Shown in pieces: positions 4,137 through 60,325 of a stretch of 64,000 nt of DNA. Every line of letters starts with the position of its first letter. The first letter of the stretch is position 1. Origin of the DNA: a virus (taxonomy: Duplodnaviria > Heunggongvirae > Uroviricota > Caudoviricetes); the IMG/VR virus record IMGVR_UViG_3300006100_000010; one strand, written 5' to 3'. The position numbers and the translations under genes are program-made. Under the pieces are notes generated by a model, which made no database searches, was not told the DNA's origin, and saw only the letters and a program-made list of their open reading frames with translations.

Positions 4137-4293
4137 ATTACTTATTATTTTAGACAAAAAAATCCTATCACTAACATAACTCGTAAGTGCGTGAGCATCA
4201 AAAAAATTAAGTAAGTGATAGGACTTTAGATCATCTTGATTATTTATTCAAGAGTCTTTTTAGGGAGTGTCTTGTCTAAGTTAAAAAATTGGA

Positions 4294-10065: not shown

Positions 10066-12460
<2,395 letters not shown>

Positions 12461-16008: not shown

Positions 16009-16287
16009 TTAATTATTTAATGAAGTTGGCTTCATGAGTTTAGTATTGATTTCACTAAGCAGGTCATTTACCTGATAGTAAGAAAAAGGAGAAGGCTGTT
16101 CCAAAATTTCCGTAAGATGATTTATATGCATCTTAAGAAGAATTCTCAATTTTCGATCAAGTTCATCTAAACTGTCTCCTTGAACAATCATAGAAGGAAG
16201 ATTGACTGATTGAGCAACAAATCCTGAATCTTCAGTAATAACATACTTTATTGCCTCCTGTAATAAATTAGGTGCTTTATTATCCAT
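16009..16287 (-). CDS. hypothetical small protein
   Basis: 92-aa ORF in the operon. It overlaps the upstream gene by 8 nt. Confidence 0.35.
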   Translation of the reverse strand: MDNKAPNLLQEAIKYVITEDSGFVAQSVNLPSMIVQGDSLDELDRKLRILLKMHINHLTEILEQPSPFSYYQVNDLLSEINTKLMKPTSLNN

Positions 16288-16771
16288 GTGTATAGTATTT
16301 AGTTTCGATTAGCGTTCTTAGTGCCCCGACAGCCTCTCGATAATCATTGAATAGAGGAATTCCAAATCTGGTGCAGACAATATCAACGTTGCCCTTTCTC
16401 CAGAAGCTCTTAGGACAACATACAATCATCTTTTTAGAGTTTGCAAATAGTCCCAACTCAAGAAGAGAGATAGGTGATTTTGTTAGAGGACTAAAGTACA
16501 TAAAAATTATGTCGCTTTTCATTAGGTGAGTCAATTCCCAATTTACCTGATAATTAAATTGAGGATTAGTTTGATCCTGTTCCCAAGTAGAATCCCAATC
16601 GTCGCGTCTAGGATTAAAAAAAGCAACATCTTCCAGGTTAAGGTCCTTAAAGGAATCAGTAAGTGTAGTTTGCCAATCTTCAGCAGTGCCCATTTCAATA
16701 GAGCCTGCTAAAAAAATAGAGACCCGAACAAAATTCGGGTCTCCATCTGTAGGTTTATAAGTAGCTATCAT
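16280..16771 (-). CDS. DNPH1/Rcl-like 2'-deoxynucleoside 5'-phosphate N-hydrolase / nucleoside 2-deoxyribosyltransferase family protein
   Basis: The N-terminal VSIFLAGSIEMG matches DNPH1 VYFCGSIRGG and NDT IYFGAGWF. PISLLELGLFANSKKMIVCCP matches the catalytic-Glu segment (DNPH1 PSLGVGYELGRAVALGKPILCLF; NDT GLGMELGYALSQGKYVLLVIP). Confidence 0.55.
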   Translation of the reverse strand: MIATYKPTDGDPNFVRVSIFLAGSIEMGTAEDWQTTLTDSFKDLNLEDVAFFNPRRDDWDSTWEQDQTNPQFNYQVNWELTHLMKSDIIFMYFSPLTKSPISLLELGLFANSKKMIVCCPKSFWRKGNVDIVCTRFGIPLFNDYREAVGALRTLIETKYYTHG

Positions 16772-16791: not shown

Positions 16792-18711
16792 TTATACGGT
16801 CTTAGTAGGATCTGCTGGAGCGTTTTGTTGTGGTGCCTTTTTAGAATTTAGCACTTCCAAGAGTTGCATTCCAAGGAGACCGCTGATAGAGCTATTTGCA
16901 GAATCTCCACCGCCTGAGATAAGCACTTCTGGTATGATTTTGATTCCGTTTTTACCGATTTCCTCAGTGATCTTGAATTTAGCAAAGTTGTCTCCACCCA
17001 TTGCTTTTACCTGTTGTTCATAGGCTTCAGCGGTTGACTTACCTATCGCTGCGATCTTTTTAGCTTCAGCGTCACCGGTGAGTTCTATTTGTTTTGCATC
17101 GGCTTCTGCGGTCATCACTTTTGCTTTTGCTTGAGCTGAGGCCTTTAGTTCAAGGGCTTTTGCTTCACCCTCAGATTTTTTAACTGCAGCTTCGGCTTCT
17201 CTTTGGGAGATTTCAACGGATTGCTGTGCTGCAACCATTTTTCCTTGCATGTCAGCCAGTGCCTTAGCTGATTCAAGAGTCTTACGTTGGTCTTGAGCTT
17301 TACGTTGAGTATCGTATGTCACCTTCTCTTCCTCTGCGATCTTACGATCGGTAAGAGTCTTCATCAGCGATTCTGGTGGCACAATATCTCCGATCAGGGT
17401 GTCTACTGCATGTACGTTGTATTCTTCTAGCACTTTGCTGATTGACTCCTTTGCAGCATCTTGGCGATTCTGTCTTGTAGAAAGGAATGAGATGACGTCT
17501 GAGTCTTGAGCAGAGTTACGGAAGTAGTTGCCGATTGTTGGTTCCAGAACTTGAGATACCAGATTCTGCATTGAACCGAATCTTGCGATCACTTTAGGCG
17601 CTTCGTTTGAAGGGATATGTATGATCTGGGATACGTCTAGGTTGAAAGGGAATCCGTCTTTAGAACGTACTGTGATTGTGCTCAGCTTTTCATCGAGTCG
17701 GTGGGACTCATTTCGACCGGATGCCCAGTTAAGTACGAGGTTAGTAGTTGGTACTACTTCTATTTTATGGGTGTATGGGTTTATTGCATACTTTCCAGGA
17801 TCAAGCGGAGTCGCCCAAACTCCTTTTTCTCCCTTACTTACGATATTTCCGTGCTTGAAGCTCTCACCGGTAACATCGGTTCCAACTTTTCCGACATATG
17901 CGATCACTACTCCTGCGCTACCTATCGGTATTTGAGTCATCGGCACCTTTTCTACCTGTACTGCCCATGGATTCAGGGAGTAGTTACCGGCTTGAATGAC
18001 CTGCTCTTGTAGACCACGTTGACCTCCACCTTCTAGGAACTTATCAAAGTCTTGGAAGTTGTTGTGTTTTTCAATTACGTTACCAGCAATCGTACCGATT
18101 TCAAGTTGTCTACCGTCAAGAGCAGTAATGACTCCGATTTGTCCGTCTTCGATATAGGTAAGATCTGCAACAGTCACATCAAATAAGAAGGTATTGATTC
18201 GGTAGACTCCGTTATTAAGGTAGCCTACCTGCTTACCTCTTTGTCCGCTATTGGAAAGAAAGGCAGTGGCATCTTGATAGTCATCGCAATCTACGTGTCT
18301 AGCAAGGATTGCACCTTTTGGAAGAGAGTCTCCATCCTTTGCTGAAAGCAATCCGATTTTACCTTTAGGGATCACTACAAGTGGTGATTGATCGATTGAA
18401 TATTGCCATGGCCAGTAGAACCAATAGAGACCTGGAGCAAGGGTCTTAGCTTGATAGCCTGGTTCTCCCTTTAGTGCAATGATCTTGCCATCGGGCATTG
18501 TTTTGTTTTCACCAAAGAGGACAAATTTTTTAGTCACCAGTCCGATCTTGTCCTCGGGAATTATTACCATTCCGAGTAGAGCGCGTAGGGTGAACTGATA
18601 GAAGACGAGTGCTAATACCGGAATTAGCAATAGAGCGTACGGTAGATAGTGTAAATACTGCATTTTGTGTTTTATAATTGTTAATGAAAAAATGTTAAGA
18701 TATGCTTGCAA
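16792..18711 (-). CDS. SPFH/band-7 (flotillin/YqiK-like) membrane protein
   Basis: An N-terminal TM helix (LHYLPYALLLIPVLALVFYQF) is followed by a long SPFH-type region. The C-terminus is an Ala/Glu/Lys-rich coiled coil (...EAEAAVKKSEGEAKALELKASAQAKAKVMTAEADAKQIELTGDAEAKK...), typical of flotillins. Confidence 0.65.
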   Translation of the reverse strand: MQAYLNIFSLTIIKHKMQYLHYLPYALLLIPVLALVFYQFTLRALLGMVIIPEDKIGLVTKKFVLFGENKTMPDGKIIALKGEPGYQAKTLAPGLYWFYWPWQYSIDQSPLVVIPKGKIGLLSAKDGDSLPKGAILARHVDCDDYQDATAFLSNSGQRGKQVGYLNNGVYRINTFLFDVTVADLTYIEDGQIGVITALDGRQLEIGTIAGNVIEKHNNFQDFDKFLEGGGQRGLQEQVIQAGNYSLNPWAVQVEKVPMTQIPIGSAGVVIAYVGKVGTDVTGESFKHGNIVSKGEKGVWATPLDPGKYAINPYTHKIEVVPTTNLVLNWASGRNESHRLDEKLSTITVRSKDGFPFNLDVSQIIHIPSNEAPKVIARFGSMQNLVSQVLEPTIGNYFRNSAQDSDVISFLSTRQNRQDAAKESISKVLEEYNVHAVDTLIGDIVPPESLMKTLTDRKIAEEEKVTYDTQRKAQDQRKTLESAKALADMQGKMVAAQQSVEISQREAEAAVKKSEGEAKALELKASAQAKAKVMTAEADAKQIELTGDAEAKKIAAIGKSTAEAYEQQVKAMGGDNFAKFKITEEIGKNGIKIIPEVLISGGGDSANSSISGLLGMQLLEVLNSKKAPQQNAPADPTKTV

Positions 18712-20281
18712 TTCTTTGACGGATTTCAGTTAGGGTCGTCTGGTTGTAGAATTTACCGTCTTCATAGATTGTATGTAGGAGACCTGTAGCTTCCTCTTCG
18801 TGAGTGCACTGAGTTTTTACCGCATATTCTCTGTCTTCTTCAAAGACTGCAACAAGACCCTTTAGAGATTTTTTAGTACCGTTATCTGTCACCGGATCCT
18901 TGTAGATGTCATACTCTTTTCCGTCAGCCTCAAACCAGGCACCTTTAGCAGCAAAGCCGAAAGTGTCACGTGTGTTGTATTGATATGTGTAAGATCCTAC
19001 ACCGAGTACAATATTAGTAGCGGCAAAACCTTTAGCTTCAAGACATTTGTAGATTTCTACTTGGCGGTCGAGCGTGATAGAATCGCCGTATATTGCTCCG
19101 ATATGCGGGTCAAGTACTTTGTAACCTTGTTCGTTTACTGTTCCTCCGAATATTTCCCAAAGTAGTTCTATAACTCCTTTGTGTTTTGGTTGATATACAT
19201 AATCTACAAAACCATCCTTAGTCTTAGTGTAATATTTTGTATTTTTATCCTCAAGGAAAATGAATTTTTCCCCTTCAGGAAGAATAAATGGTTTATTAAT
19301 ATCTTCCTTTTTGATAACTCGATATGGTTCAAATTCTCCACAAATAATATCTACAGGATCACCAGAGTCAGGACGTATTACGAGTTTACCGTCTCTTGCC
19401 ATAATAGCGTCTTTGTTAGCTGGAAGATACTTAGTAATAAGTGTCCACAAATCAAATGTATCTGCTACTATTGAAAGTATTCCTGTTGGAAAGTCTTGCA
19501 GCCAATCGGCAATCATTTGTTGCTCGCCTACTGTGAATATTTTAGTGGTTGACACTGAGTGTTCTGAGGCATTCACTGAACTGATGCAAACCTGATTTTC
19601 TGGCTCATCATAGAAATAGCGAGCAGCTGGGATCACGATAATTGTATCGGATCCCTTGTGTGAAGATGCATGACCTAGGCCAGAGGAGAGCATATCCCAA
19701 GGAGAAAGTCCGCGAGCACTAAAATCGTGAGCCATGTAGTCAATTAGCCATGCATTTTTAGAGTCAGTTTTCATTACCCACTCTACTAGGTTTCTACGGT
19801 ATTGTAGAGCAATTGTTGCTGATGTCGAAGGCTTCCATGCAAGAGAAGAAATGATTGTCTCCAAGTAAAGGGTCAGCCAGGCAAATCCGTCAACCGTATT
19901 GACAAATGTCATGTGAGGAATGTTTGGTAGAGTCTCGATACCTTCAGGTAAAGATTTTACCCTGACTGGTAGGTATTGAAGATCATGAAGAGCCTCAAAG
20001 TGAGAGGCATCATATGGCATGCCAAGGTATGCAGAAATGTCCATACCGAACTTTACTGCAGATTCCTTAGGGAGGGCAAAAAAGTTTTCTGCATATTCAT
20101 CGTGTAACCAGCGCATGACCAGTTGTTGGCCGAAGGATACGATCTTTTTAATGTTTCCTGGAGCGTATTTTACGCTTCTTGGAATCCAGGTGCCGTAAAG
20201 TTTTGTTGTTCCTTTAGCGAGCATTCTCCTGTGGCCGAGCTTATAGCCATCGGCATACCATATTGCAGGGGGTTTAAACAT
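18695..20281 (-). CDS. nicotinamide phosphoribosyltransferase family protein (NAMPT/NadV-like; could equally be the Namat-type nicotinamide ADP-ribose transferase of phage NARP1)
   Basis: 528 aa. The N-terminus reads ...WYADGYKLGHRRM... Overall it resembles type II phosphoribosyltransferases of the NAMPT family, and it lies adjacent to a Prs-like gene. Confidence 0.7.
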   Translation of the reverse strand: MFKPPAIWYADGYKLGHRRMLAKGTTKLYGTWIPRSVKYAPGNIKKIVSFGQQLVMRWLHDEYAENFFALPKESAVKFGMDISAYLGMPYDASHFEALHDLQYLPVRVKSLPEGIETLPNIPHMTFVNTVDGFAWLTLYLETIISSLAWKPSTSATIALQYRRNLVEWVMKTDSKNAWLIDYMAHDFSARGLSPWDMLSSGLGHASSHKGSDTIIVIPAARYFYDEPENQVCISSVNASEHSVSTTKIFTVGEQQMIADWLQDFPTGILSIVADTFDLWTLITKYLPANKDAIMARDGKLVIRPDSGDPVDIICGEFEPYRVIKKEDINKPFILPEGEKFIFLEDKNTKYYTKTKDGFVDYVYQPKHKGVIELLWEIFGGTVNEQGYKVLDPHIGAIYGDSITLDRQVEIYKCLEAKGFAATNIVLGVGSYTYQYNTRDTFGFAAKGAWFEADGKEYDIYKDPVTDNGTKKSLKGLVAVFEEDREYAVKTQCTHEEEATGLLHTIYEDGKFYNQTTLTEIRQRIASIS

Positions 20282-20290
20282 AGTTTGTTT

Positions 20291-20779
20291 TTACTTTTTA
20301 AATATTACTATAGTTACTATACAATCTTTTAGCTCACGTTTAATGATGTGCTTGATTTTTTCCCAGTCTCCACCAGCAAGACCTGCGCCAATCATCGGTA
20401 GCCCAATGTGCAAGCCTTTGTATTTTTGATTGATCTTACGCATGCAAAGTGTGATTGCCTCGTAATCTACTGGTGTGTCAACTCCATCTGTATGATTTTT
20501 TCCATAGGAGTATTGAGTGTATGCATTGATCACAAAGACACCTCTTTCCATGTCCATGCGAGAGATGAGATGGGCTTCTATTTGACCCAGTTTATTGATG
20601 TCACCTTTGTACTTTATATCTTCTAGTGGAAATAGGTCACAGCCAAAGGCAGAGGCCATTTGTGGAGCCAATCCTGCTCCCATTGTGCAAAGGCAGTTGC
20701 AACCGTGCGCAATCACATCAAATTTTCCTTCTTTAGCTAGGGCAATTAGATCCCCATAAACTTCGGTGTAGTTATTCAT
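20291..20779 (-). CDS. macro domain protein (ADP-ribose binding/processing)
   Basis: ...FDVIAHGCNCLCTMGAGLAPQMASAFG... matches the macro-domain ADP-ribose binding loop (N-x-x-N...G-G-G-V/A...). 162 aa. Confidence 0.6.
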   Translation of the reverse strand: MNNYTEVYGDLIALAKEGKFDVIAHGCNCLCTMGAGLAPQMASAFGCDLFPLEDIKYKGDINKLGQIEAHLISRMDMERGVFVINAYTQYSYGKNHTDGVDTPVDYEAITLCMRKINQKYKGLHIGLPMIGAGLAGGDWEKIKHIIKRELKDCIVTIVIFKK

Positions 20780-20793
20780 TTAGATAGATGTTT

Positions 20794-21669
20794 TTAGAAT
20801 ATTCCAAGTTGAGTGACTAACGGATCAGTTATGTCTGAGTAGCTATTGCTGCAGTAGATTCCGTCTAGCGACTTGCGCAAGTCATCAAGCCCTGCTGAGA
20901 ATATTCCGTGTGAGATGATTAGATATGTCTTGCCAGTTCTTTCAGGTTGAGTCCTTTTGATCTCATCTGCAATGTTTAAGAAGGTGCGACCGCCGTCACA
21001 AATGTCATCGATGATGACCAAGTTTTTTGAGAAGTGGTCAATACGATAAGGAACATGGGTCTTACTGAGTTTACCATCGGTGCCTCTGTATTTGCTACAG
21101 GTGAGTATTTCACCGTCAAATTTTAGAGAACTTGCAACCTTGTAGATCTTTTTTAGACTGCCTCCATCCGGTGAAACAAAAATGCAGGTGTTAAGAAACT
21201 CAGCAGGTGTGCAGTTTTGCTTTTCAGCTTCTCGTGAGATGAATGCAGTCACTAGTGATGTGTTATCGAGTACCTTAAGTCGGTTGATGCAGGCAGCGGC
21301 AACGTCTGAGTGCACGTCAAAGCACAGCACTTGCTTAAAGTTTAGAGAGTTTAGGATTGGCGCAATAACGTCACGAAGGTAAGAAGTACCTCCATTAACA
21401 AACTGACGGTCGCTACGTGCTCCAAGTATGTATGGAACATAGAGGGTAATTTCCTCTATTCCCAAATTTCTCAGTGCCTTGGTCGCACAGATAATTATCT
21501 CAAGATCCCGGAATGAATTGAACCTAGATCGGATTGTGATAGGTTCGGTGAGTGAGGTCGGTACTCTTGGATAATCGATAATAGTTACGTCCTGTTGCCC
21601 GTCTGGAAAACTGGAAATTTTGTAATTAATGTCTGAGCTATTCGGTTGTACTAGATTTAGGATTTTCAT
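20794..21669 (-). CDS. ribose-phosphate pyrophosphokinase-like protein (Prs family; possibly the Adps-type ADP-ribose diphosphokinase of NARP1)
   Basis: PRTase-type PRPP-binding loop VIIDDICDGGRT, an upstream Prs-like segment YVPYILGARSDR, and a length of 291 aa. Confidence 0.65.
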   Translation of the reverse strand: MKILNLVQPNSSDINYKISSFPDGQQDVTIIDYPRVPTSLTEPITIRSRFNSFRDLEIIICATKALRNLGIEEITLYVPYILGARSDRQFVNGGTSYLRDVIAPILNSLNFKQVLCFDVHSDVAAACINRLKVLDNTSLVTAFISREAEKQNCTPAEFLNTCIFVSPDGGSLKKIYKVASSLKFDGEILTCSKYRGTDGKLSKTHVPYRIDHFSKNLVIIDDICDGGRTFLNIADEIKRTQPERTGKTYLIISHGIFSAGLDDLRKSLDGIYCSNSYSDITDPLVTQLGIF

Positions 21670-49552: not shown

Positions 49553-52278
49553 GGTACTATCTTCAGGTTGCAAGTTGCAGAATCATACCATACTGATCCT
49601 GAAGGAAGCCCTGAGCTACTTGATGGTATGTTTTTAATTGATAAGTTATTCACAAATGTAGTACATGCACGGTCACTAGTTATTCCAGTACCAACAATAA
49701 AGCTATTGCTGCATGAGGCAGTGTTGCAAACTCCAGCAAGGATTCCGCTATATGCACCAGACACAGTATTACTGCATCCTGAACCAATAAATGAGTCGCA
49801 TCCACATGCTGTATTGCCATATCCTGAAACAACTGCCGATCCGACTCCGCCTGCAATATTAAACACTCCACCGCCAATAAATGAAAGATCTCCAATTGCT
49901 GAATTTTGTTGACCTCCAGCCAACGTTGCATAGTGTCCAGAGGCAGTGCTCTGAATTCCTCCTCCAATAAAAGATTGGTTACCAGTTGCAGTATTAGAGC
50001 TGCCGCCTACTACAATTCCAGACTCAGCAGTATTAGAGTAGCCGCCTACTACAATTCCAGAATGTGCTACGGTATTTCCGTATCCTCCTCCAATAAATGA
50101 ATGCTCACTATTTGTTTCAACAACATTATAGGATCCTCCGACTATTGAACTATATCCTCCACCTGGACGACTTAGTAACGGATCATTCACCGTATTGCAA
50201 TAACCGCCGCTAACGGTTGAACAGCATGAACCTACATAATTATAGATTCCTCCTCCTATTACTGATCCATATCCATTACAACCTATGGTGTTATTAGCTC
50301 CGCCAGAAATAACTCCTCCTCCGGAAACAATTGAATTTATGCCTCCTCCTGAGATAACTGATCCTGCACCGCTTATATAATTTCCACTACCTCCACCTAT
50401 TGTTGAATAGTAAGAAGAAACAGTATTCTGTCCACCGCCTGCAATTACACTGAAAGGTGCAGTAATTGAATTATTGTTTCCTCCTGAAATAGTTGATACA
50501 ATATTCAAATATCCGCTTATTGTGTTATACGCCCCACCTGAGATTGTTGTTGCAGCCGAGCACGTACTGCTATTTCCAATTCCTCCAGCAATTGTGCTAG
50601 CCAGACCTTCTTGATAATTACAGTATCCTCCTCCTATCGTTGAGTCTCCATTAATAATTTGACCTACCGTTATGGTAATATCATCAGCAGGACTAGATCC
50701 GCCAAATGTGGTTCCGTAAAATGTGATAGTATCGCCAGTGGAATAGCCGTGTCCTGGAAAAGAAACGGTAATTGATGCAATTCCTCCTGAAATCATTATT
50801 TCAAATAGAGCATCATGACCGTTTCCAGAAGTAGAGTCCTGAGAAATTAAAGCATATGTATTATTCGAAAGGGTTCCACTGTATGTGGTTCCGCTAAGTG
50901 TTAGTATACCGTCTGCTCCAATTATGTGATTTAGTGCACCTCCACCGATTGTTGCGTGCGGTCCAGCTGATGTATTGCAGAATCCTCCTCCGACTGTTGC
51001 AACACATGAGCTTGCACAGTTGCTAATTCCTCCAGAAACAGTAGCGGCTTCGTGACTCGTAAAGTTTCCGTAGCCTCCACCGATTATATTAGTTTCTCCA
51101 GTTGCAGAATTACAAACTCCTCCGCCGACGGTAGAGACATAACCAGATGCCAAGTTTCCGCCTCCACCTGAAATGGTTCCAAGTACACCGGACACGACAT
51201 TTGAATTTCCTCCGGCAATTGTGCCAGTGACCGCATTGTAAATAATACTTCCAACACCTCCGCCTATCACTGAACCTGCTGAACTGTTGATATAATTTGA
51301 ATATCCTCCGCCTATTGTTGTAGCTAGCGCGGCTTCGCTTGAATTTGCGTATCCTCCGCCAATAACTGAATTTCCTGGAAGTATTTGTGTTACCGTGAAT
51401 ACAATATTGTCTTGAGGACGACTTCCTCCAAGCGAGTCTCCATATATAGTGAGGGTATCGCCTACCTGGTAATCGATGCCTGGATCAGCCGGAAAAGCAG
51501 TAAGGACTCCACCGGAAATTGTGATCACTGCAGTTGCACCAGATCCCATACCGGAAGTTGCATCAATTGCAGTTTGAATATTTGAGCCCATAGTATCAGG
51601 AAGCGAACCGCTGTATGCTGTTGAAAAATTAAGGACTCCTCCGCTTCCAGAAGCAGAATTTTGTGTACCTCCAGCGATGGTCGATGCATTACCTGATACT
51701 GTATTTCCAGATCCGCCGGAAATGGTCGAATAGTTACCAGTTGCTGAGTTACCGTTTAACTTACGAACAGATGATCCAGTGCCATCGCCTAATACAATAA
51801 CCGGATCATTACCGCCTCCACCTCCACCGTTTCCAGTCAAACTCACCCAGCCTCTACCCTGTAAGTAGCCGATAAAATCCTCTCCAAAATAGGGTTGCTG
51901 ATTTGAAATACCGGTGTAAATTATTTCTCCAGGTACTCCTGTGCTAGGCCAGTCATTAAAGTCCGTAAATCGTCTCCTCTTTGCTTGGGAGATCTGCATC
52001 GTGATGCTTTGACCGACGATTCTGCCTTGAGCATCTATTGTTAGATTAGTGGTCGATCCCTGGACCATGCTTAAAGTATTCGTCACAATGACGGTGCCAA
52101 CTGTTATTCCGCTAAGAGCTGCAGTATTTAGAGTTTCATCATACGCAATATTGGTTAGGAAACCAAGGTTTGCGGAGGATAGATTCTTAAAGTTTAGATT
52201 GGTAATATCAATTATCGCATTTAAGCTAGAATTGGTAAGTCTCCTAATTGAGTTTAGGTTTGTGTAAATAGCCATCAA
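49549..52278 (-). CDS. glycine-rich beta-helical tail fiber/spike protein (909 aa)
   Basis: Dozens of degenerate repeats of the type (T/S)I(G/S)GG(Y/N)xN / GGGYxNxxS / SxxGGxxNxA. The N-terminus [32 protein letters not shown] is a typical fiber attachment region. The C-terminus reads ...[16 protein letters not shown]. Confidence 0.55.
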
Positions 52279-52317
52279 GACCCATTATTTTTATTATTTA
52301 TTATAGTGGGACTGGGC

Positions 52318-53643
52318 TTATCTTAACTTGGCAATTATCTTGGTGTGCTTGTCTATCGTTGAATTGATGGTGAGTCTTCCTCTATTTACAAGGCACTCAC
52401 GCAGATCAGCATTAATCATCTTTAGGTCTGAGTTATCAAGAAAACTTGTACTAATGTCGTTGTTTTCTCCCATATAAGTGCAATCGATTATCTTTGAGCT
52501 CTTGATAAAATTATTTGAAAAAACAGTACACTCACTAAGTTTTGAGCTCTTTATCGAACATCCCTCAAATAAGCAGCCCTTTGCATCAACTTCAACCGTA
52601 CACTGGTAGAATTCGATATTTTCCACAAGTATTCCTCTAGAAACAGTTGCGTCCTTTACCTGAAAGGCTTTTCTTCTAGTGTCCCAGTTTATGACCCCCT
52701 CTGAGATCTCGCCGCCAAACACTAGCTGAAAGAGTCTCTCCTTTATAATGTCGTAGTTTGCTTCAATGAATCGACGGTCGTCCTTAAGATCAACATATAT
52801 CGATATGCCAGGATATTTCATCTTAAAGTTACTATAGCTGCGAGTAGAATCTACTGCATCTCTAAGCTCAGAAGTTATCTCAGAGATAATCTTCTTTTCC
52901 TCTAATGTATACTCATAATTATTGGATAGAGTAGCATAGAGGTGCTCTATGATAAAATTAATTGAGTCAACTGACTCCTTCTTTTTCTTGTGATAGTCCT
53001 TGCCTGAGATGTATTTTAAAATAAGGTTGCCTCGATCCATCTCAGAAAAGTCAGTTGCAAAGAAATCAGACTCAGGGAAATTAAATTCATTGGGATCCAT
53101 TCTTTCGACACGGCTCTCTGTGACTACTGTGTTGTATATCTGTCGAGGTTTAATAAATCTCAACTGATTGCGATATACTTTGGTATTTTCATTGACCTTG
53201 TGCGGCCACATTTCAAATAGCTTAGACTCATCGAATCCAAGCAAATACTTAAACTTGTTTAGCTTATCAGTCTTTACAGTTAGTCCTAGCTCATCTTCGT
53301 TGAGGCGGACTCTGGTAGTCATTGAACAACGATCTGTAGTATAGCCAAGGGCTTCAATCACGTTCATCACCTTTAACATCATGTGTATTGCTTCTAGGTA
53401 TGGCATAAAACCTGTCGAAAGGCTCGTCTCTTTGTATCCGTTTGAATATACTGGAGAGATCTTAAACGATTCCAATGTGGGTTCAAAGGTGGAGTCAACG
53501 TCAGTGAACCACTTGACCTTTTTGCCGAGCGCTCTAGCTAATTTTGCAGCAAGTTCTCTCTTATTTAGAGGAGTAAAGAACTCAAAGACAAACGCAAGAC
53601 TGGAATTGTCGTATAACTCTTTATTTGAAATAGACTTAAACAT
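52318..53643 (-). CDS. hypothetical protein with a C-terminal Cys-punctuated beta-repeat region; possibly fiber-associated
   Basis: 441 aa. The C-terminal ~120 aa show periodic short repeats containing Cys (QCTVEV...GCLFEGCSIKSS...ECTVFS...DCTYMG...RECLVN). It lies directly upstream of the Gly-rich fiber gene on the same strand. Confidence 0.35.
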   Translation of the reverse strand: MFKSISNKELYDNSSLAFVFEFFTPLNKRELAAKLARALGKKVKWFTDVDSTFEPTLESFKISPVYSNGYKETSLSTGFMPYLEAIHMMLKVMNVIEALGYTTDRCSMTTRVRLNEDELGLTVKTDKLNKFKYLLGFDESKLFEMWPHKVNENTKVYRNQLRFIKPRQIYNTVVTESRVERMDPNEFNFPESDFFATDFSEMDRGNLILKYISGKDYHKKKKESVDSINFIIEHLYATLSNNYEYTLEEKKIISEITSELRDAVDSTRSYSNFKMKYPGISIYVDLKDDRRFIEANYDIIKERLFQLVFGGEISEGVINWDTRRKAFQVKDATVSRGILVENIEFYQCTVEVDAKGCLFEGCSIKSSKLSECTVFSNNFIKSSKIIDCTYMGENNDISTSFLDNSDLKMINADLRECLVNRGRLTINSTIDKHTKIIAKLR

Positions 53644-53730
53644 CTAACTGATCTTTATTCTATTTATTCTAAACTGGCTTCATCTTAAATAAATAAAGGT
53701 AGGAAGATCTCCTCAAAATAAGTAAAACAC

Positions 53731-54195
53731 ATGCAATACAGAGTAGAAGCAACAATTCTAAATAAATCAGGCAATTACACACCTACTGTAGGTTCACCAG
53801 CGGTTAATCTTGCTAGGAAGAACGAGGGAAATAATCGAATCCTTAATGTGTCTGCTGAGAAGATACTTACTGCAGATGAACTAATTGCTCAAATTGAATC
53901 AACGTTAGCTAGTCTAGTTCTCACTGGTGCTAAACTTACAGTTAACGGAGAGAGCCCAGCTGCAACTGACCTAATTAAAGAGGGAACGCTTGCCTACTCA
54001 GCCACACTAGATAAGATTGTGCCTGTAAATAAACCTGCCACAATACCAGCAATGAAATCCACTAAACCTGCTTTAGGAAAAACTGTGGCACGGGACTCTC
54101 ACATTCTTCAGGATTCACTTTTTCCTAAAGTTAACCCAGTGGAAAGATTTATCGCAGCCTTTAATAAACTTAATGAATTAGATAACAAAAAATAA
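53731..54195 (+). CDS. hypothetical protein
   Basis: 154-aa ORF. The stop overlaps the terminator hairpin. Confidence 0.4.
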   Translation: MQYRVEATILNKSGNYTPTVGSPAVNLARKNEGNNRILNVSAEKILTADELIAQIESTLASLVLTGAKLTVNGESPAATDLIKEGTLAYSATLDKIVPVNKPATIPAMKSTKPALGKTVARDSHILQDSLFPKVNPVERFIAAFNKLNELDNKK

Positions 54196-54222
54196 GCGAT
54201 ACACTAAAAGTATATCGCTTAT
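54187..54222 (-). terminator. rho-independent terminator immediately 3' of the tmRNA (minus strand)
   Basis: Stem AATAAGCGATA / TATCGCTTATT (10-11 bp) with an 11-nt loop, followed on the minus strand by TTTTTT. The tmRNA 3' acceptor end is 2 nt upstream. Confidence 0.6.
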
Positions 54223-54223
54223 T

Positions 54224-54638
54224 GTGGACCGGGTGGGAGTTGAACCCACGTCTTGCTCGACTAGTAGAAAGGACTCATTCACAAGCTTACTCAGTTTACG
54301 ACACTGACAAACTTTTTGGTTTTCGGGGTAGTTTATGAAGAGTTTCCTTCTCTTCCTCATGACGGCTATCTACATGCCTACACGTCTTTCCGTAGTGTCT
54401 TCTGGCTTCCGATCTATTGATCGTACCTCCAATTTGTGACTTTCTGTTCCTAGGCAGTCACCGCCCGGTGCTTAGGCAGCTATTGCTACTTCTGCGCCAA
54501 CGAAAGACATTGCGTCTTCGAAGGTAAATGTTGACTTAGCGTCGTTTGTATTCTGCATTGGGGATTAACGAGTTTCAATGCTAACTCAGCTTGCATCATC
54601 TCAATGAACTAACGCCGCCAATCAATACCCGGCCGGCC
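54224..54638 (-). ncRNA. ssrA: tmRNA (ssrA), phage-encoded
   Basis: At the minus-strand 3' end a T-arm (GTGGG-TTCAACT-CCCAC) is directly followed by the acceptor 3' strand CCGGTCC, then A, C. The 5' end (GGGCCGG) pairs with it, giving a 7-bp acceptor stem with a G3:U70 wobble (Ala identity). About 125 nt from the 5' end an ORF-like tag reads GCA ATG TCT TTC GTT GGC GCA GAA GTA GCA ATA GCT GCC TAA, ending ...VAIAA-stop (ALAA-like). A GAAGAC/GTCTTC-type helix precedes it. Total length about 415 nt. Confidence 0.6.
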
Positions 54639-54734
54639 CATATTGGAAAGATCTGATTTATCTATCCGTAGTATTTTATCTAATATACTAAATCGGTTTC
54701 AACAGAATAAATAAAATAAACAATATTTAGGTAA

Positions 54735-56402
54735 ATGGCAAGCGCAGTTGACAATTTTAAAGTTCTTAATCGACTAAGTATATACATAGAAGACATCATG
54801 AGTCAGACTATAAACTATCTGACAAACCGCTTTAGTCAAAGCCGATCAATATTTACGGCAGCCTCACCTTTCGGCCAATTGTTACTTGTTGTTGAGAACC
54901 TTACGCAACTTGTGTTCTATTATATAGAGGACTCTATCACTGAGCTTAATATAAATGAAGCCACCCGTCTTACATCTGTCTATTCGTTAGCTTCCCTTTC
55001 GGGACATAACCCTAGCCGAGCAGTTGCCGCAATTGGTGAGATCAGCATTAGCACAAATTCAAGTGCGGTTAACGCTCCATACGACAGCGTGATTATTCCA
55101 AATCTCACGAGAATTCGTTCTCTAGCTAATGGACTTACCTATATTTTAGAGCTTTCGCAAGATCAAATAAGGTTTCCATTCAATGGAACCAATAACGGAC
55201 TCAAGCTTGGAATAAAGCAAGGAATTGTTGAGACTCAGACAGTAACGGCTAAAGGCATACCGACAGACAGCTATTCGATTAGCAGTCCTCAAAACTTTTA
55301 TATTGATAACTTTTTTGTCAATGTCTATGTGAACGGAAGTCTTTGGAACAGGTACGACTCTATCCTAGACATGCCAAGAGGCGAACCTGCATACATGGTT
55401 AGAACCGGGATCACTAGCGGAATAGATGTGTATTTTGGTAATGGAAACTTTGGTGCAATACCGCCAAAGGGAGCAGACATCACAGTTGAATACCTGGTGA
55501 CTGAGGGCGCAAACGGCAATATCCGTACAAACGACCTAGCAAAGGTTGGATTTGAATGGATCGACACTGGATTTAGCTCTTTGGGAGATGAGATCGACCT
55601 AAATAAATACATCAGCATAACTGCAACACATGCTCCGTTCTTTGGATCCAATGCAGAAGATTCAACTTTGACTCGTCTTATTGCTCCTAGAGAATCGAAA
55701 AGCTTTGCCCTAGTCAATGTAGATCACTATGAAGTGTTACTAAGAAAGTTAAAGCTTTTCTCAGTGATCCAAGTGTATCTTGATCCAAACGATAGTCGTG
55801 TTCTGGACCTATTTCTTATTCCAGACATACGCCAAACATTTAACACAGGTCAGGATTATTTTAGCGCGACCATCGATCGATTCACCTTGACCGACTATCA
55901 AAAAAATGAGCTTTTGAAATACATTGAAAAATCAGGATCAAAGCTAATATCAACTGATGCAGTCATCATAGATCCAGTACCGAGCTTATATGTATTGAAC
56001 GTTTCAATAATTGCATACGATGATGTTGACATTAGCATCATTAAAAACGACATACTTAACTCTTTAGGTACCTTCTTTATTCAAACGACTAGACGCAACA
56101 GAATTCCAAAGAGTGATTTGATTGCTCTACTTGAGGGAGTAAACGGAGTCGATTCAGTTTCAATCTATATAGTATCTAAAAAGAACGAAATTAGCAAGAT
56201 CGCAAATTCGTCTGCTGCAGATGTTGGAGTCGATGAATTCAACGATATTATAATAGAAAATGGAGAACTTGCGATAATAAAAGGTGGATTCACCGATCGC
56301 TACGGTAACGCATATAGCGAAGGTCTCTCTACCACTTCACTAGGTCCTGTAAATATTCAGGTGAAGAACATTGTCCCTAGACCAAAAAATGGATCAGCAT
56401 GA
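54735..56402 (+). CDS. structural protein, possibly baseplate J/gp6-like wedge protein
   Basis: 555 aa. The N-terminal region (...YYIEDSITELNINEATRLTSVYSLASLSGHNPSRAVAAIG...) loosely resembles the start of the baseplate-J family. This assignment is weak. Confidence 0.25.
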   Translation: MASAVDNFKVLNRLSIYIEDIMSQTINYLTNRFSQSRSIFTAASPFGQLLLVVENLTQLVFYYIEDSITELNINEATRLTSVYSLASLSGHNPSRAVAAIGEISISTNSSAVNAPYDSVIIPNLTRIRSLANGLTYILELSQDQIRFPFNGTNNGLKLGIKQGIVETQTVTAKGIPTDSYSISSPQNFYIDNFFVNVYVNGSLWNRYDSILDMPRGEPAYMVRTGITSGIDVYFGNGNFGAIPPKGADITVEYLVTEGANGNIRTNDLAKVGFEWIDTGFSSLGDEIDLNKYISITATHAPFFGSNAEDSTLTRLIAPRESKSFALVNVDHYEVLLRKLKLFSVIQVYLDPNDSRVLDLFLIPDIRQTFNTGQDYFSATIDRFTLTDYQKNELLKYIEKSGSKLISTDAVIIDPVPSLYVLNVSIIAYDDVDISIIKNDILNSLGTFFIQTTRRNRIPKSDLIALLEGVNGVDSVSIYIVSKKNEISKIANSSAADVGVDEFNDIIIENGELAIIKGGFTDRYGNAYSEGLSTTSLGPVNIQVKNIVPRPKNGSA

Positions 56403-56644
56403 CAAAAGACAGCATATTCAGACCCATCTTTAGTAGACGCGAGAATCGTCTAAACATGGGATACGATTACAAAGGAAACATACTTAAGAAAACTCTGTCA
56501 GGTCAGATGTTTGGAGTGAATCCAACGCTCGATACATACCTTTCAAAAATAGATGCGATTGTCTATGAATGGATAGAGGCAGTAAAACAGATAAAAATCA
56601 ATGTGAATCCGGCATTAGATAAGTACGAAAACAAGATAAACTAA
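56399..56644 (+). CDS. hypothetical small protein
   Basis: 81-aa ORF. It overlaps the upstream gene by 4 nt. Confidence 0.35.
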   Translation: MTKDSIFRPIFSRRENRLNMGYDYKGNILKKTLSGQMFGVNPTLDTYLSKIDAIVYEWIEAVKQIKINVNPALDKYENKIN

Positions 56645-56648
56645 ACAT

Positions 56649-57374
56649 ATGGCTAAGAAGCAAGGCGGCATGAGCCGCGAAAACCGTGGTCATCTAAAAG
56701 ATGAGATAGAATCTCTTTTAGGTTCAATAGGGCAAGAGACTCACGCCAATCTTATAGTGGACAACGATCTTTCGCAGGAATTAAAGAAAGAGAGTCCTTA
56801 TGATTTTGAAGCGATGAGCTCACAGTTTACTAAGAAGGCAAGAGAGATCACTGACTCGCTCTTTAAAAACTTTGTGGACATTGGAGTATTTGAGCAAAAT
56901 GACTATGCAAAACACAAGAAAGAGCTTGATACAATCAACATCTCCAATCTTTTCTTTCAATTAAAGACTCTAAAGATCACAATCATAAAGGTGATGGAGG
57001 AGATTACCTCAGGCAACACGCATCCTCGACTAATTGAGGTGATGGGTCAGCTACAGGATAAGATGGCAGACATCACTAAGATGCAGGCAAATTACATAAT
57101 CTTTTTGGAAGAGACCTATCAGAAACTAAATAGAGATAAGCCAGTCAATTCTGACTTTGAAAAAGTTGATTCTAGTCCGCAGGAAGGTCAGTTCTTCATC
57201 ACAGTTGGGACTAAGAACATGATAAAGAGTCTTCCTGAATCTGCCCCAACCAAAAAGGAGGCTAAAAATAACTTCGTTGATCCAAGTCAAAAGATCGACC
57301 TCATGAAAGATCGTAATATCCAGATCCAAGCAGAAGACTCGGACGATTTTATCGATCTTAGCGAAATAATCTAA
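56649..57374 (+). CDS. candidate terminase small subunit
   Basis: 241 aa with a basic N-terminus and coiled-coil-rich sequence, immediately upstream of the large terminase (the gp16-gp17 arrangement). No diagnostic motif. Confidence 0.3.
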   Translation: MAKKQGGMSRENRGHLKDEIESLLGSIGQETHANLIVDNDLSQELKKESPYDFEAMSSQFTKKAREITDSLFKNFVDIGVFEQNDYAKHKKELDTINISNLFFQLKTLKITIIKVMEEITSGNTHPRLIEVMGQLQDKMADITKMQANYIIFLEETYQKLNRDKPVNSDFEKVDSSPQEGQFFITVGTKNMIKSLPESAPTKKEAKNNFVDPSQKIDLMKDRNIQIQAEDSDDFIDLSEII

Positions 57375-57378
57375 TCGT

Positions 57379-59355
57379 ATGAAGGATATTATGTCAAGTA
57401 GGGGGGCGTTCGTCTCTCGTAAAGTGTCGTCAATGGGAGGAGCGGACAATGATACAAACGCCTCTTTATGGACTACGGTAAGGATCAATGCGCTAATTGA
57501 AGAAATCGATAATGGACTTGATATAAAGGGACTGCACAGTTCTCCATTCAAAGACAATGACCTAAACCTAAAGCGGGCAGCGCTTCCATTTGAATACACT
57601 CCTGAAGAATTTGAAGAGCTTAAAAAGTGTAAAGAGGACATTATTTATTTTGCATACAATTATTGCTGCATACAAACACCTAAGGGAATTAAGCTGATAA
57701 AGGAAACGATGGGCCTTCGTGATTTTCAGGAACAGATCCTTGAGTCATTTAGCACAAACCGTCTTAATATTTTAATGGCAAGTCGTCAGATCGGTAAGTC
57801 GGTTACTTCTGCTATTTTTATCCTTTGGTTTACCATGTTTAATCCTGAAAAGACTGCCCTAATCGTTGCCGATAACTTCAACACGACCAAGGAGCTATTA
57901 GATAAATTGAAGATAACTCTGGAGGGTCTACCTTTCTTTATGAAACCTGGAATAAAATTGATAAATTCCGGAAATATTAAATTTGACAACGACAGTCGTA
58001 TTGTTGCAAGAACGACTACCAAAAAGTCAGGTATCGGTCTTACTGTTAACTTGCTCTATATGGACGAGTTTGCTCATATAGATTCTGCAAAGCTGGATGA
58101 ATTTTATCGTGCAGTATTTCCAACCGTCACGGCAGACCCTAATGCAAAGGTTATCATAACATCTACACCAAATGGAAAGAACAAGTTCTATGATATATGG
58201 ACTGATGCGATTGAGCGTAGGAGTAACTACGTTCCGTTAAGAGTCGACTGGTGGCAGGTTCCAGGCAGGGATGAAAGGTGGAAAGAGGATACTATTGCGG
58301 ATCTTGGCTCGATCGAAGACTTTAATCAGGAATATGGATTACAGTTCTTCTCGTCTGATCAATTGTTATTGGGATCAAATGAGCTAAAGAGACTCTATAA
58401 CATGAAAGTCGAATACGTTAATACACAGTTTGCAGTAAACGATAACTTTCAACACATTAATGACTATTTTAAAATACATCCAAAGTATTCCAAATACTCA
58501 ATATCCGACCTTAAAGCAGATCGGTCAAACTATGTAGCGACGATAGATACTGCAGACGGAGTCGGCGGCGACTATTCAGTCATGAATATCTATCGATTAG
58601 TTGCTCTACCTGTAAATCTTCTATTGAAAAAGAAGGAGGCGATTCGCAATGAGCTTGATACCTTAGCTCTCGTGCAAGTTGCAACCTATCGAACGAATGA
58701 GCGAGACATCAACCAGTTTTCAGCAGATTGTGAACATATAGTGTATAAAATATTCAACCCTGAAAGGATCAGAATCGTACTTGAAGTGAATCATAAGGGA
58801 GAAATTGTGCACAACATGATGTCATCAAATAACGATTATTGGCCGGGACAGTTTGTGCACACCAAGCACACAGAAATGGCAGTCGCTCCAAAATTAGGAG
58901 TAAGACTTGGACCGACCAATAAAATCAAATACTGTGAACGATTTAAGTACACAGTTGCCGCAAACAAAATAATTCCTAATGAATACACGACTGTGATGGA
59001 ATTAATGGCATTTGGTAAATCAAAAGGAGGACAATACAGGGGACAGAACGGTAATGACGACCTTGCAATGACTTCAGTGACCATGACGACTTTCTTTGAT
59101 TCTCCACAGTTTTGGGACATGGGAATTGACACATACGAATCAACTGCTCCAGAATATAGAAAGGAGATTGACGAAAAAATATTTAAAGTGTTTCGTGAAA
59201 CGAATCCCAAGAGTTTGTATGATTTTAATCAACTATCAAGTCTAAATGCTCCACGAGCATCAGACTCATCTGCCAACCCCGTAAAGCAAAATGTTTTCGA
59301 TTTAAAATCGCTTGACGAATTTAAAAAATTACAAAGCCGATTTTTTAATCGTTAA
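57379..59355 (+). CDS. terL: terminase large subunit (T4 gp17-like ATPase plus nuclease)
   Basis: Walker A in a T4-like context ...LNILMASRQIGKSVTSAIFILWF (compare gp17 ...SRQLGKT). Walker B/coupling motif ...LLYMDEFAHI. The C-terminal half has the acidic residues of an RNase H-like nuclease domain (...ATIDTADGVGGDYSVM...). 658 aa. Confidence 0.8.
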   Translation: MKDIMSSRGAFVSRKVSSMGGADNDTNASLWTTVRINALIEEIDNGLDIKGLHSSPFKDNDLNLKRAALPFEYTPEEFEELKKCKEDIIYFAYNYCCIQTPKGIKLIKETMGLRDFQEQILESFSTNRLNILMASRQIGKSVTSAIFILWFTMFNPEKTALIVADNFNTTKELLDKLKITLEGLPFFMKPGIKLINSGNIKFDNDSRIVARTTTKKSGIGLTVNLLYMDEFAHIDSAKLDEFYRAVFPTVTADPNAKVIITSTPNGKNKFYDIWTDAIERRSNYVPLRVDWWQVPGRDERWKEDTIADLGSIEDFNQEYGLQFFSSDQLLLGSNELKRLYNMKVEYVNTQFAVNDNFQHINDYFKIHPKYSKYSISDLKADRSNYVATIDTADGVGGDYSVMNIYRLVALPVNLLLKKKEAIRNELDTLALVQVATYRTNERDINQFSADCEHIVYKIFNPERIRIVLEVNHKGEIVHNMMSSNNDYWPGQFVHTKHTEMAVAPKLGVRLGPTNKIKYCERFKYTVAANKIIPNEYTTVMELMAFGKSKGGQYRGQNGNDDLAMTSVTMTTFFDSPQFWDMGIDTYESTAPEYRKEIDEKIFKVFRETNPKSLYDFNQLSSLNAPRASDSSANPVKQNVFDLKSLDEFKKLQSRFFNR

Positions 59356-59395
59356 CTAATTATTAGTATCTTATAAAAGACTCGTACTACTTATT

Positions 59396-59695
59396 ATGAA
59401 ATCACTGGAATTTAGAGGAGACATAACTCTTGAAGAAGTTTTTAATGAACACAAAGCTGTTATATATGAAAGTGTTGTACATGCAATTCGTGATAATCTA
59501 AAATTAAGCGAGCCTGAAGTACCAGTCATTAAAATCATAATAAATGAAATAGAGTATTCAATTAACTTAGGACACGAAAAGTTTCTTCGTTGCCTTGATC
59601 AGGCAATCGCTTTCTATGAGCAACTGGAGGAATATGAAAAATGTCAAGAGTGCTTAGAGATAAGCAATAACCTACGAAAAAAAGAGCTAGTTTAA
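59396..59695 (+). CDS. hypothetical small protein
   Basis: 99-aa ORF between terL and the ECF sigma gene. Confidence 0.35.
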   Translation: MKSLEFRGDITLEEVFNEHKAVIYESVVHAIRDNLKLSEPEVPVIKIIINEIEYSINLGHEKFLRCLDQAIAFYEQLEEYEKCQECLEISNNLRKKELV

Positions 59696-59698
59696 TAT

Positions 59699-60325
59699 AT
59701 GGGATATGAGAAAATTAATCTGATCAACAACGCAAGAATCCAAGAAATTTCAGAAAAACTACTAACCAGCGAAATAACAGAAAGAGAAAGAAACGAATTA
59801 GCAACTCTAATCTCTCCAAAGCTTAAAAACTTCATCTGGAAATTCTGTAGAAATGAATTTGATACTGAGGAATCTCTTCAGTGGACTCTAAAAAAGATCT
59901 TCAAAAACGCTTCGCAATTCGATTTTAGTAAAGGCAGGTTTACTACCTGGATATACACGATTGCAAGAAACGAAACCTTGTATTACCTACATTACAAGAA
60001 GAAGAGCTCGGTGCAAGACATAGACGCTCACTATTCTGTTCAAGAAAGAATAGCAGATGATGGGTCTATTATTGAAAGCAAAAAATTACTGGATGACATT
60101 TATGATGTTGTCGTCCATGAGATCAATCAAATAGAGGATGACCTCTTAAGATCCATTGCAGTTGATAAAATGCTACTTAACAAGAAAGTAAAGCAGATCG
60201 CAAGTGATTATGAGCTAAATGAGAACACCGTTAAAACTAAACTGCGTAAGATACGTTACGATGTTCGATTAGCTGTACTCAAGGGAAATCCACAACTTGA
60301 GCAAAAAATACAAGACTTATTATGA
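59699..60325 (+). CDS. ECF-type sigma-70 family sigma factor
   Basis: Region 2 reads FDFSKGRFTTWIYTIARNETLYYL (ECF consensus F..W..IARN). Region 4.2-like reads ...LNENTVKTKLRKIRYDVRLAVL (helix-turn-helix, TVK.RL.R.R pattern). 208 aa. Confidence 0.6.
   Translation: MGYEKINLINNARIQEISEKLLTSEITERERNELATLISPKLKNFIWKFCRNEFDTEESLQWTLKKIFKNASQFDFSKGRFTTWIYTIARNETLYYLHYKKKSSVQDIDAHYSVQERIADDGSIIESKKLLDDIYDVVVHEINQIEDDLLRSIAVDKMLLNKKVKQIASDYELNENTVKTKLRKIRYDVRLAVLKGNPQLEQKIQDLL

Follow-up and report, generated by a model that had tools for sequence, protein, structure and literature searches.

Does a large uncultured phage carry a functional gene for transfer-messenger RNA (tmRNA, ssrA), and what could such a gene do during infection? 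The question arises from the viral record IMGVR_UViG_3300006100_000010, from which a stretch of 64,000 nucleotides (nt), called here the window, was analysed. ARAGORN reported a single RNA gene in the whole window, a tmRNA at 54224..54639 on the minus strand (as are all RNA features below) encoding the tag DAKSTFTFEDAMSFVGAEVAIAA followed by a stop. The original prediction had placed this tmRNA at 54224-54638; strand and locus were right, and the span was one base short at its 5' end, where G1 of the RNA is position 54639. The complete one-piece gene measures 416 nt, and RNA position n corresponds to window coordinate 54640-n. A sensitive Rfam scan of 54100-54760 gave a match to the tmRNA family RF00023 over model positions 1-374, with 44.8 bits and an E-value of 1.5e-16, whereas nothing was reported across the whole window at gathering thresholds. 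The curated gathering cut-off of RF00023 is 47 bits, which is a curation threshold and not a biological feature, and the match appears only with an E-value threshold. The covariance-model check proposed with the original prediction therefore yielded a full-length match that falls about 2 bits short of the cut-off; the match is far beyond chance, though formally under the curated threshold. With a cut-off of 47 bits, models of permuted tmRNA (RF04321 and relatives) reached only 13.7 and 10.7, and the parts of the gene follow one another in the standard order; a permuted RNA is thus ruled out. No riboswitch was matched in the same sensitive scan. Together with the structure, the reading frame and the relatives described below, where the same site holds a homolog in 31 related viral loci, these results make it very probable that the locus is a functional one-piece tmRNA gene borne by a large T4-like uncultured phage.

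The core tmRNA modules are maintained by compensatory evolution in the related phages. We wrote the structure from the window sequence (helix 1 (H1), helices 2a, 2c and 2d (H2a, H2c and H2d), stems S1 and S2 of pseudoknot 1 (PK1), a hairpin within the tag frame, helix 5 (H5), a PK2-like hairpin, two 3' hairpins and the T-arm) and counted pairs across 22 distinct sequences. Overall, 79.1% of cells were paired, compared with 33-44% in slid controls; 41 pairs had changed on both sides (controls, 14-19), and the covariation score was 0.291 (controls, 0.05-0.10), a value reached by none of 500 shuffles. For four of the five measures no shuffle did as well as the real alignment, and for the fifth, further standard pair types, 4 of the 500 did. 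RNAalifold, applied to the 22 sequences, independently recovered the acceptor stem, the T-arm, helix 2d, one PK1 stem and a 3' hairpin.

The tRNA-like domain has all the features that the original prediction had read from the letters. Its 7-bp acceptor stem joins GGGCCGG (n1-7; 54633..54639) to CCGGUCC (n408-414), the latter followed by the discriminator A415 and a C (54224..54232), and G3 forms a wobble with U412 of the G3:U70 type, which is invariant in 22/22 homologs; four of the seven pairs covary. The T-arm (54233..54249) consists of a 5-bp stem, GUGGG/CCCAC (n391-395 with n403-407), and the 7-nt loop UUCAACU, with compensatory changes in all five pairs and 100% of cells paired. Helix 2 connects n19-51 (54589..54621) to n354-387 (54253..54286, including UAAGCUUGUGAAUGAG); H2a is 85% paired with 6/7 pairs covarying, H2d, the part recovered by RNAalifold, is 97% paired, and H2c is weaker at 63%. 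PK1 (54555..54588) is formed by S1 (n52-56 with n67-71; 83% paired, 4/5 pairs covarying) and S2 (n59-64 with n80-85), whose core is 98% paired with 4/4 pairs covarying. Helix 5, GCUGCC/GGCGGU (n160-165 with n175-180; 54460..54480), holds the UAA stop in its loop, and is 72% paired with two pairs changed on both sides. A tmRNA fold was to be expected from the original prediction, and the tRNA-like domain, helix 2, PK1 and helix 5 are indeed backed by covariation in the 22 homologs, while PK2-PK4 are only partly resolved.

The tag reading frame occupies 54472..54543, from the resume codon GAC (n97-99; 54543-54541) through 23 sense codons, DAKSTFTFEDAMSFVGAEVAIAA, to the stop UAA (n166-168; 54474-54472). 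It ends with ...GAEVAIAA, as previously noted, and thus with a non-polar AIAA C-terminus; its earlier location about 125 nt into the RNA was only roughly right, given that the frame spans n97-168. The minimum numbers of changes at codon positions 1, 2 and 3 were 10, 9 and 24 (three same-length groups; chi-square p = 0.007), and the ratio of synonymous to non-synonymous changes was 20:17 in the tag frame compared with 7:29 and 5:33 in the other two (Fisher p = 1e-4). Across 19 sequences the tag frame contained no stop codon, while the other frames contained 42 and 37. Because ARAGORN took a downstream in-frame start for one homolog (L072), we repeated the test on the upstream two-thirds of the tag alone, and the signature persisted (14:11 versus 5:20 and 3:23, p = 5e-4). 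In 19/19 long-tag members, exactly 11 nt separate PK1 from the resume codon. A short tag, AEVAIAA, read from a downstream resume codon of the kind that ARAGORN picked for L072, was rejected in view of the upstream coding signature and the fixed PK1 spacing. Given this signature, the lack of in-frame stops and the constant spacing, sequence comparison indicates that the long tag is not an annotation artefact, and the 23-codon tag appears to be translated and under selection at the protein level.

Most carriers have tags of 23-26 residues, for example DAKSTFTFEDAMSFVGAEVAIAA, DNKSTWTFEDAMSFVGADLAVAA, GNTSIWDVINGFVGAPATEVEYAVAA and GNTNFWSLVNQGVNTPVTEELLAA, with a recurrent pattern of an aromatic motif, an acidic stretch and an aliphatic-Ala-Ala end. 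Phages of the Bxz1 type probably have long tags as well. Shorter tags occur in L001, where the N-terminal part is missing (13 residues), and in L008 and L040 (9 residues each). Part of the frame also forms a hairpin in the minimum-free-energy fold (54501..54520), CGAAGAC-GCAAU-GUCUUUCG (n120-139), so that constraint at the RNA level contributes to tag conservation as well. This hairpin is invariant in the window-type subgroup, and an analogous hairpin of different sequence is found in the clade B tags; cross-family alignment gives no support for a homologous pairing (48.6% paired), and L001 has lost the part of the tag that forms it.

Downstream of the stop codon, a post-stop element and a PK2-like structure occupy 54425..54468. 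The hairpin GUGACU/AGUCAC (n179-184 with n199-204) shows double changes in 4/4 pairs, and a second PK2-like stem, GCCU/AGGU (n185-188 with n212-215), is possible. For the variable 3' region that follows (54290..54424), the expected place of PK3 and PK4, folding predicts a candidate pseudoknot at n245-279 besides three hairpins, at n217-230, n285-303 and n332-350. Compared with L001, two changes in the n285-303 stem are compensatory, and the n332-350 hairpin is 94% paired with 3/4 pairs covarying. Within the post-stop part, a 33-nt element, CCGGGCGGUGACUGCCUAGGAACAGAAAGUCAC (54436-54468), recurs almost unchanged in tmRNAs of phages that are otherwise unrelated. It is common to Streptomyces Samistivirus phages and an environmental group (L171, L204 and L205), while the rest of the RNAs differs; loci sharing it are L171:1728-2167, L204:4974-5414, L205:5534-5971 and L201:464-744. 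The Samistivirus tmRNAs are 281 nt long with tags of 11-13 residues, and the environmental group has a related tmRNA with 23-residue tags, placed in a tRNA island. Scans of viral and metagenome contigs, limited to exact matches, revealed no bacterial donor of the element and returned only phage-type contexts. L171, filed as a Saprospirales metagenome-assembled genome (MAG), at first resembled a bacterial donor with a 23-residue tag; it was rejected as one, as the contig is phage-like, with a tRNA island and PHROG matches, and its relatives L204 and L205 are viral contigs.

L171 (CALAZP010000032.1, 47.5 kb) is one of two contigs filed under bacterial MAGs that carry a tmRNA beside several tRNAs, the other being L146 (CAZPLB010000001.1, 219.6 kb, Gammaproteobacteria). 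Their tags have 23 and 28 residues, respectively, that of L146 being ANESEASGVDPLAWAAFGVGNTAFALAV. L171 is apparently a large phage that was binned into a MAG, and the same may hold for L146. Three further contigs, L084, L130 and L184, come from Flavobacterium MAGs and are AT-rich (27-34% GC). L084 and L184 encode short tmRNAs with cyanobacterial-style tags of the ANNIV type (ANNIVRFSNIHAIA and ANNIVKFSKTYAFA), which are odd for Flavobacterium and hold no host information; mis-binning or phage DNA may account for them.

The gene is borne by the phage and is not a host ssrA, because the window is phage DNA throughout, as the original prediction had assumed. On the upstream side, the tmRNA diverges from a baseplate wedge gene (54735..56402, plus strand; phrog_219, E = 1.5e-27), which served as synteny anchor, and a T4-type large terminase gene follows at 57379-59355. 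Further phage genes across the window encode a sigma factor, a gp15-like sheath stabiliser, giant tail-fibre-like open reading frames (ORFs), both ribonucleotide reductase subunits, GroEL, NAMPT and UvdE. On the other side, orf154 (53731..54195, plus strand) converges on the tmRNA, its last 5 nt overlapping the terminator stem, and separates it from the conserved orf441. No tblastn match to orf154 was found in 80 related loci, nor any sequence match in Pfam, PHROG or PDB, and it looks like a lineage-specific insertion beside the tmRNA. We also considered orf154 as a divergent SmpB and rejected this, as it has none of these database matches and no BLASTP similarity to E. coli SmpB.

The gene has its own terminator, as the original prediction had stated. 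A 15-bp stem-loop (stem 54223..54191) followed by a U-run, together 54187..54223, starts one base after the 3' end called by ARAGORN, with a folding free energy of -17.8 kcal/mol (z = -6.6) that none of 200 shuffles equalled. Most relatives also have a hairpin and a T-run after the tmRNA, their sequences being unrelated to one another. A consensus scan gave a candidate sigma-70-type promoter at 54673..54702 (minus strand), TTGAAA-18 nt-TAAAAT, with 10/12 matches, and a -10-like box lies at the same distance in L001 and L080. Such a promoter would imply a 5' leader of ~27 nt, to be removed by RNase P. The window contains 23 copies of another motif, ATAAATA, of which 14 are intergenic and mostly lie 23-32 nt upstream of start codons on the same strand; examples are 54707 (+), 53667 (-), 53689 (+), 52301 (-), 43810 (-), 43860 (+), 27111 (+) and 10001 (-). 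This motif is probably the T4-type late promoter of the phage. One copy is located 28 nt upstream of the wedge ATG, and the tmRNA has only a degenerate copy.

Using the wedge protein as query, we collected 80 related viral contigs (47-77% identity, some from contigs of 207-253 kb), and ARAGORN combined with an nhmmer profile found a homologous tmRNA at the same site in 31 of them. The homologs are placed on the strand opposite to the wedge gene and ~90-135 nt upstream of it, with the exception of L040, where a tmRNA (tag GNAEYAMAA) is separated from the wedge gene by three tRNA genes (Asp, Glu and Ala) in an enlarged gap of 884 nt upstream of that gene (L040:4782-5793); the same site is therefore able to grow into a small tRNA island. 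The wedge-protein tree contains one major clade in which every member with enough flank has the tmRNA. In the clade of the window the carriers are scattered and show three tag types at one site, and the window-type tag is also found in the distant L070 group. No tmRNA remnants were found at E <= 0.01 in relatives without the gene. Such a distribution could result from clean loss that occurred repeatedly, from the exchange of cassettes at a fixed site, or from the two together.

Some of these genes are easily overlooked. ARAGORN missed five tmRNAs detected by nhmmer (L001:5469-5907, L066:5522-5890, L171, L204 and L205), and Rfam confirmed both of those tested (L001 and L171). It also assigned four different wrong tags to the L070 group (L070, L072, L073 and L078). 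Divergent phage tmRNAs are probably under-counted by standard pipelines, and the present locus adds a practical warning, as the curated Rfam threshold misses the gene of the window and ARAGORN both missed homologs and mis-called tags.

We favour a model in which the phage RNA rescues stalled ribosomes with the help of the host machinery. Host RNA polymerase would transcribe a precursor with the ~27-nt leader, host RNase P and 3' trimming enzymes would mature it, and the host CCA-adding enzyme would complete the 3' end, a step the model requires because the gene encodes ACAA and not ACCA. The RNA would then be charged by host alanyl-tRNA synthetase (AlaRS) via G3:U70 and, with host EF-Tu and host SmpB (assumed because no smpB was found in these 64 kb), would enter ribosomes stalled on broken or stop-less mRNAs. 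Translation would resume at GAC, add Ala and DAKSTFTFEDAMSFVGAEVAIAA, and terminate at the UAA in the helix-5 loop, the added part of the tagged product starting with A-DAKSTFTFEDAMSFVGAEV. The ribosome would be freed, and the tagged fragment, ending in AIAA, would be sent to host AAA+ proteases. A need for this may arise during infection if host mRNA is degraded, if host ssrA transcription is possibly off, or if RNA is cleaved by host defences. We infer maturation, charging, use of SmpB, ribosome entry, tagging and proteolysis from established knowledge of trans-translation. The functions put forward in the original prediction, ribosome rescue and an altered tag specificity, are likewise inferences.

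Several observations weigh against this interpretation. The window copy has the lowest RF00023 score of the family, ~2 bits below the cut-off, while all related phage tmRNAs tested are above it (51.8-111.8 bits). The window copy has an irregular helix 2b/c and one G.G mismatch, and the PK2-PK4 region does not align across the family, leaving support for individual hairpins only and the pseudoknot pairings as candidates. CCA is not encoded: the genome runs on with AA, so that the 3' end reads ACAA (...GGUCC-A-CAA), whereas six relatives encode CCA (L070, L072, L049, L062, L063 and L066), as do many tmRNA genes, though not all of them. A Pfam scan of the window ORFs of >=150 aa yielded no SmpB. 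Promoter-like sites are no more numerous in the region than expected by chance, which makes the promoter call weak on its own. The clade to which the window belongs is mostly without tmRNA, with at least 30 such loci including the close sisters L002, L006 and L007, and the tmRNA is therefore dispensable, as many close relatives do without it. Finally, the benefit to the phage, namely that ribosomes would be kept available and amino acids recycled during infection, is conjecture.

The alternative that survives best accepts that rescue occurs and places its value in the tag. The long lineage-specific peptide would act as a custom degron read by a particular adaptor or protease of the host or phage, and would alter the choice of truncated proteins for destruction, or the speed or place of that destruction; the idea overlaps with the rescue model, and the two differ only in the object of selection. 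We consider this idea unlikely as the chief explanation. It accounts for the 23-26-residue tags in most carriers and in a second, unrelated phage group (L171, L204 and L205), for protein-level selection that covers the N-terminal and middle parts of the tag and not just the C-terminal degron, for the recurring aromatic, acidic and aliphatic-Ala-Ala pattern, and for the three tag types at one site in a single phage clade. However, a long tag could simply copy that of a host lineage using long tags, part of the conservation falls in the RNA hairpin within the frame, and no adaptor or protease gene was identified near the tmRNA. The 13-residue tag of L001 and the 9-residue tags of L008 and L040 further indicate that the long part is dispensable.

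A bolder version, which we hold with somewhat less confidence still, is that this tmRNA lineage circulates among large environmental phages as a mobile cassette, its long tags serving as phage-specific degrons or signals that redirect the products of stalled ribosomes during infection and are not copies of a host tag. In one family the lineage occupies the fixed position next to the wedge gene, in another it is found in tRNA islands, and the near-identical post-stop element links it even to Streptomyces phages.

It is improbable that the phage RNA instead works as a decoy, competing with host tmRNA for SmpB, AlaRS or stalled ribosomes and thereby blunting host trans-translation or a response that depends on it. 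A precedent has been proposed in mycobacteriophage DS6A, whose tmRNA consists of the tRNA-like domain only (TLD-only) and was suggested to titrate SmpB (PMC4131195), and with no phage smpB seen in the window the RNA must draw on the host pool. A decoy, however, has no need for a codon-selected open tag frame, a stop in the helix-5 loop or a fixed PK1 spacing, yet all three are conserved. The RNA of the window, like that of DS6A, is phage-encoded and contains a tmRNA tRNA-like domain, but it is full-length and has a selected tag frame, and pure titration of SmpB is therefore unlikely.

Even less credible is a decaying passenger, that is, a gene acquired from a host or another phage that is drifting to loss and has no role in this phage. 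The low Rfam score, the missing CCA and the absence of the gene from most of its own clade, including the three sisters, would agree with decay. In the copy itself, however, all listed helices are canonical but for one pair; no damage is seen in G3:U70, the T-loop, PK1, the open tag frame or the terminator; and a departure from the family consensus in helix 2a is compensated (U-A for C-G). The lack of remnants in lineages without the gene likewise suggests clean loss over slow decay. The last alternative, an ssrA of the host at the edge of a prophage or island or an ssrA attP fragment, is effectively refuted by context. Although tmRNA genes commonly serve as sites of integration and 3' ssrA fragments are frequent in phages (PMC3029335, PMC9004378), the gene is full-length and lies between orf154 and the wedge gene, structural and replication genes of the phage surround it over all 64 kb, the same arrangement recurs in 31 viral contigs, and no integrase was found among the window ORFs scanned.

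How does the gene compare with known systems? It shares with bacterial SsrA (RF00023, E. coli) a tRNA-Ala-like domain that includes G3:U70, a T-arm whose stem has 5 bp and whose loop has 7 nt, an extended helix 2, a distance of 11 nt from PK1 to the resume codon, and a frame that ends with aliphatic-Ala-Ala and stops in the helix-5 loop, within a total of ~360-420 nt. The E. coli tag has 10 encoded residues. The window gene differs from bacterial SsrA in being phage-encoded, in its 23-residue tag, in its resume codon GAC (Asp), in not encoding CCA, in scoring just under the Rfam cut-off, and in a highly divergent PK2-PK4 region.

Phage tmRNAs as such are already known. They were reported in 402 of 18,146 phage genomes, ~2% (PMC9004378), so the original prediction was right that they are uncommon, but its argument from rarity overstated the novelty of what is a well-documented class. 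Examples include the Bxz1 cluster, Bacillus phage G and DS6A (PMC4131195); in huge phages, tmRNA has been documented alongside SmpB (PMC7162821). Listed carriers also include LR756500 and the Lak phages, which are the nearest reference relatives of the wedge and terminase proteins of the window. The one-piece tmRNAs of the Bxz1/C1 cluster, Bacillus phage G, Samistivirus (e.g., Daubenski) and the huge phages, including LR756500 and Lak, resemble the present gene as complete genes in large lytic phages (PMC4131195, PMC7162821, PMC9004378 Table S1). Those of Streptomyces phages share the near-identical 33-nt post-stop element and otherwise show low sequence similarity. In contrast to these phage tmRNAs, the gene of the window does not belong to a tRNA island and is an isolated neighbour of the baseplate wedge gene; in a deep synteny check, no tmRNA was found next to the wedge gene in LR756500 or Lak-C1. 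The two-piece tmRNAs of OM43 phage Melnitz and pelagimyophages are likewise ssrA genes of T4-like aquatic myophages near promoters, with the same proposed roles (PMC9004378), but the window gene is not permuted and 54100-54760 holds no riboswitch match.

Less ordinary here are the long tag selected as protein, the fixed site outside tRNA islands, the patchy, cassette-like distribution and the shared post-stop element. The locus adds a well-supported example from an uncultured jumbo-sized phage family, and its ~30 homologs provide direct comparative evidence for selection on both the RNA structure and the tag peptide. Close relatives with and without the gene, and the occurrence of three tag types at a single site, offer ready contrasts for asking what the phage gains and what becomes of tagged products. 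Our literature searches found no experimental test of any phage-encoded tmRNA, and for this reason the role of these RNAs is an open, if modest, question.

In its DNA sequence the phage has no close reference relative. Megablast of 50000-60000 against reference phages returned no match, an exact 28-mer from the tmRNA 3' end had none in viral contigs, and exact look-up of the wedge and large terminase proteins found nothing on record. The nearest reference terminase and wedge proteins are 33-36% identical and belong to 460-640-kb uncultured megaphages, Prevotella Lak phages and phages of Tenacibaculum, Chryseobacterium and Flavobacterium. They hint at, but do not show, a Bacteroidota host. We also attempted to infer the host from bacterial ssrA genes, in a genome scan with the helix-2 3' strand and the T-arm as pattern. 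The matches were mostly cyanobacterial ssrA, with a profile match only over the 3' ~70 nt, and this resemblance was rejected as host evidence because it is circular, the matching part being the pattern itself. A literature search for Bacteroidota tag strings yielded nothing useful.

Several other genes of the window may be mentioned. Ribosomal protein S1 binds tmRNA in bacteria, and an ORF of 389 aa (4294-5463, minus strand) contains a single S1 RNA-binding domain (PF00575, residues 251-296, E = 1e-9); a link between this ORF and the tmRNA is conceivable. The GroEL chaperonin (10066-11706, minus strand; phrog_5725, E = 1e-152) is found as an identical protein on 11 assembled contigs, for example ENA ERZ27272014 k141_254808 (63.8 kb). 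A homing endonuclease gene of the GIY-YIG/NUMOD3/I-TevI-like type (2380-3084, minus strand) lies between the genes for the large (546-2351) and small (3135-4157) ribonucleotide reductase subunits. Lastly, an NAD-related cluster on the minus strand encodes NAMPT (18695-20281), a macro-domain protein (20291-20779) and a phosphoribosyltransferase (20794-21669), and is adjoined by genes for an SPFH/Band-7 protein (16792-18711) and a nucleoside 2-deoxyribosyltransferase-like protein (16280-16771).

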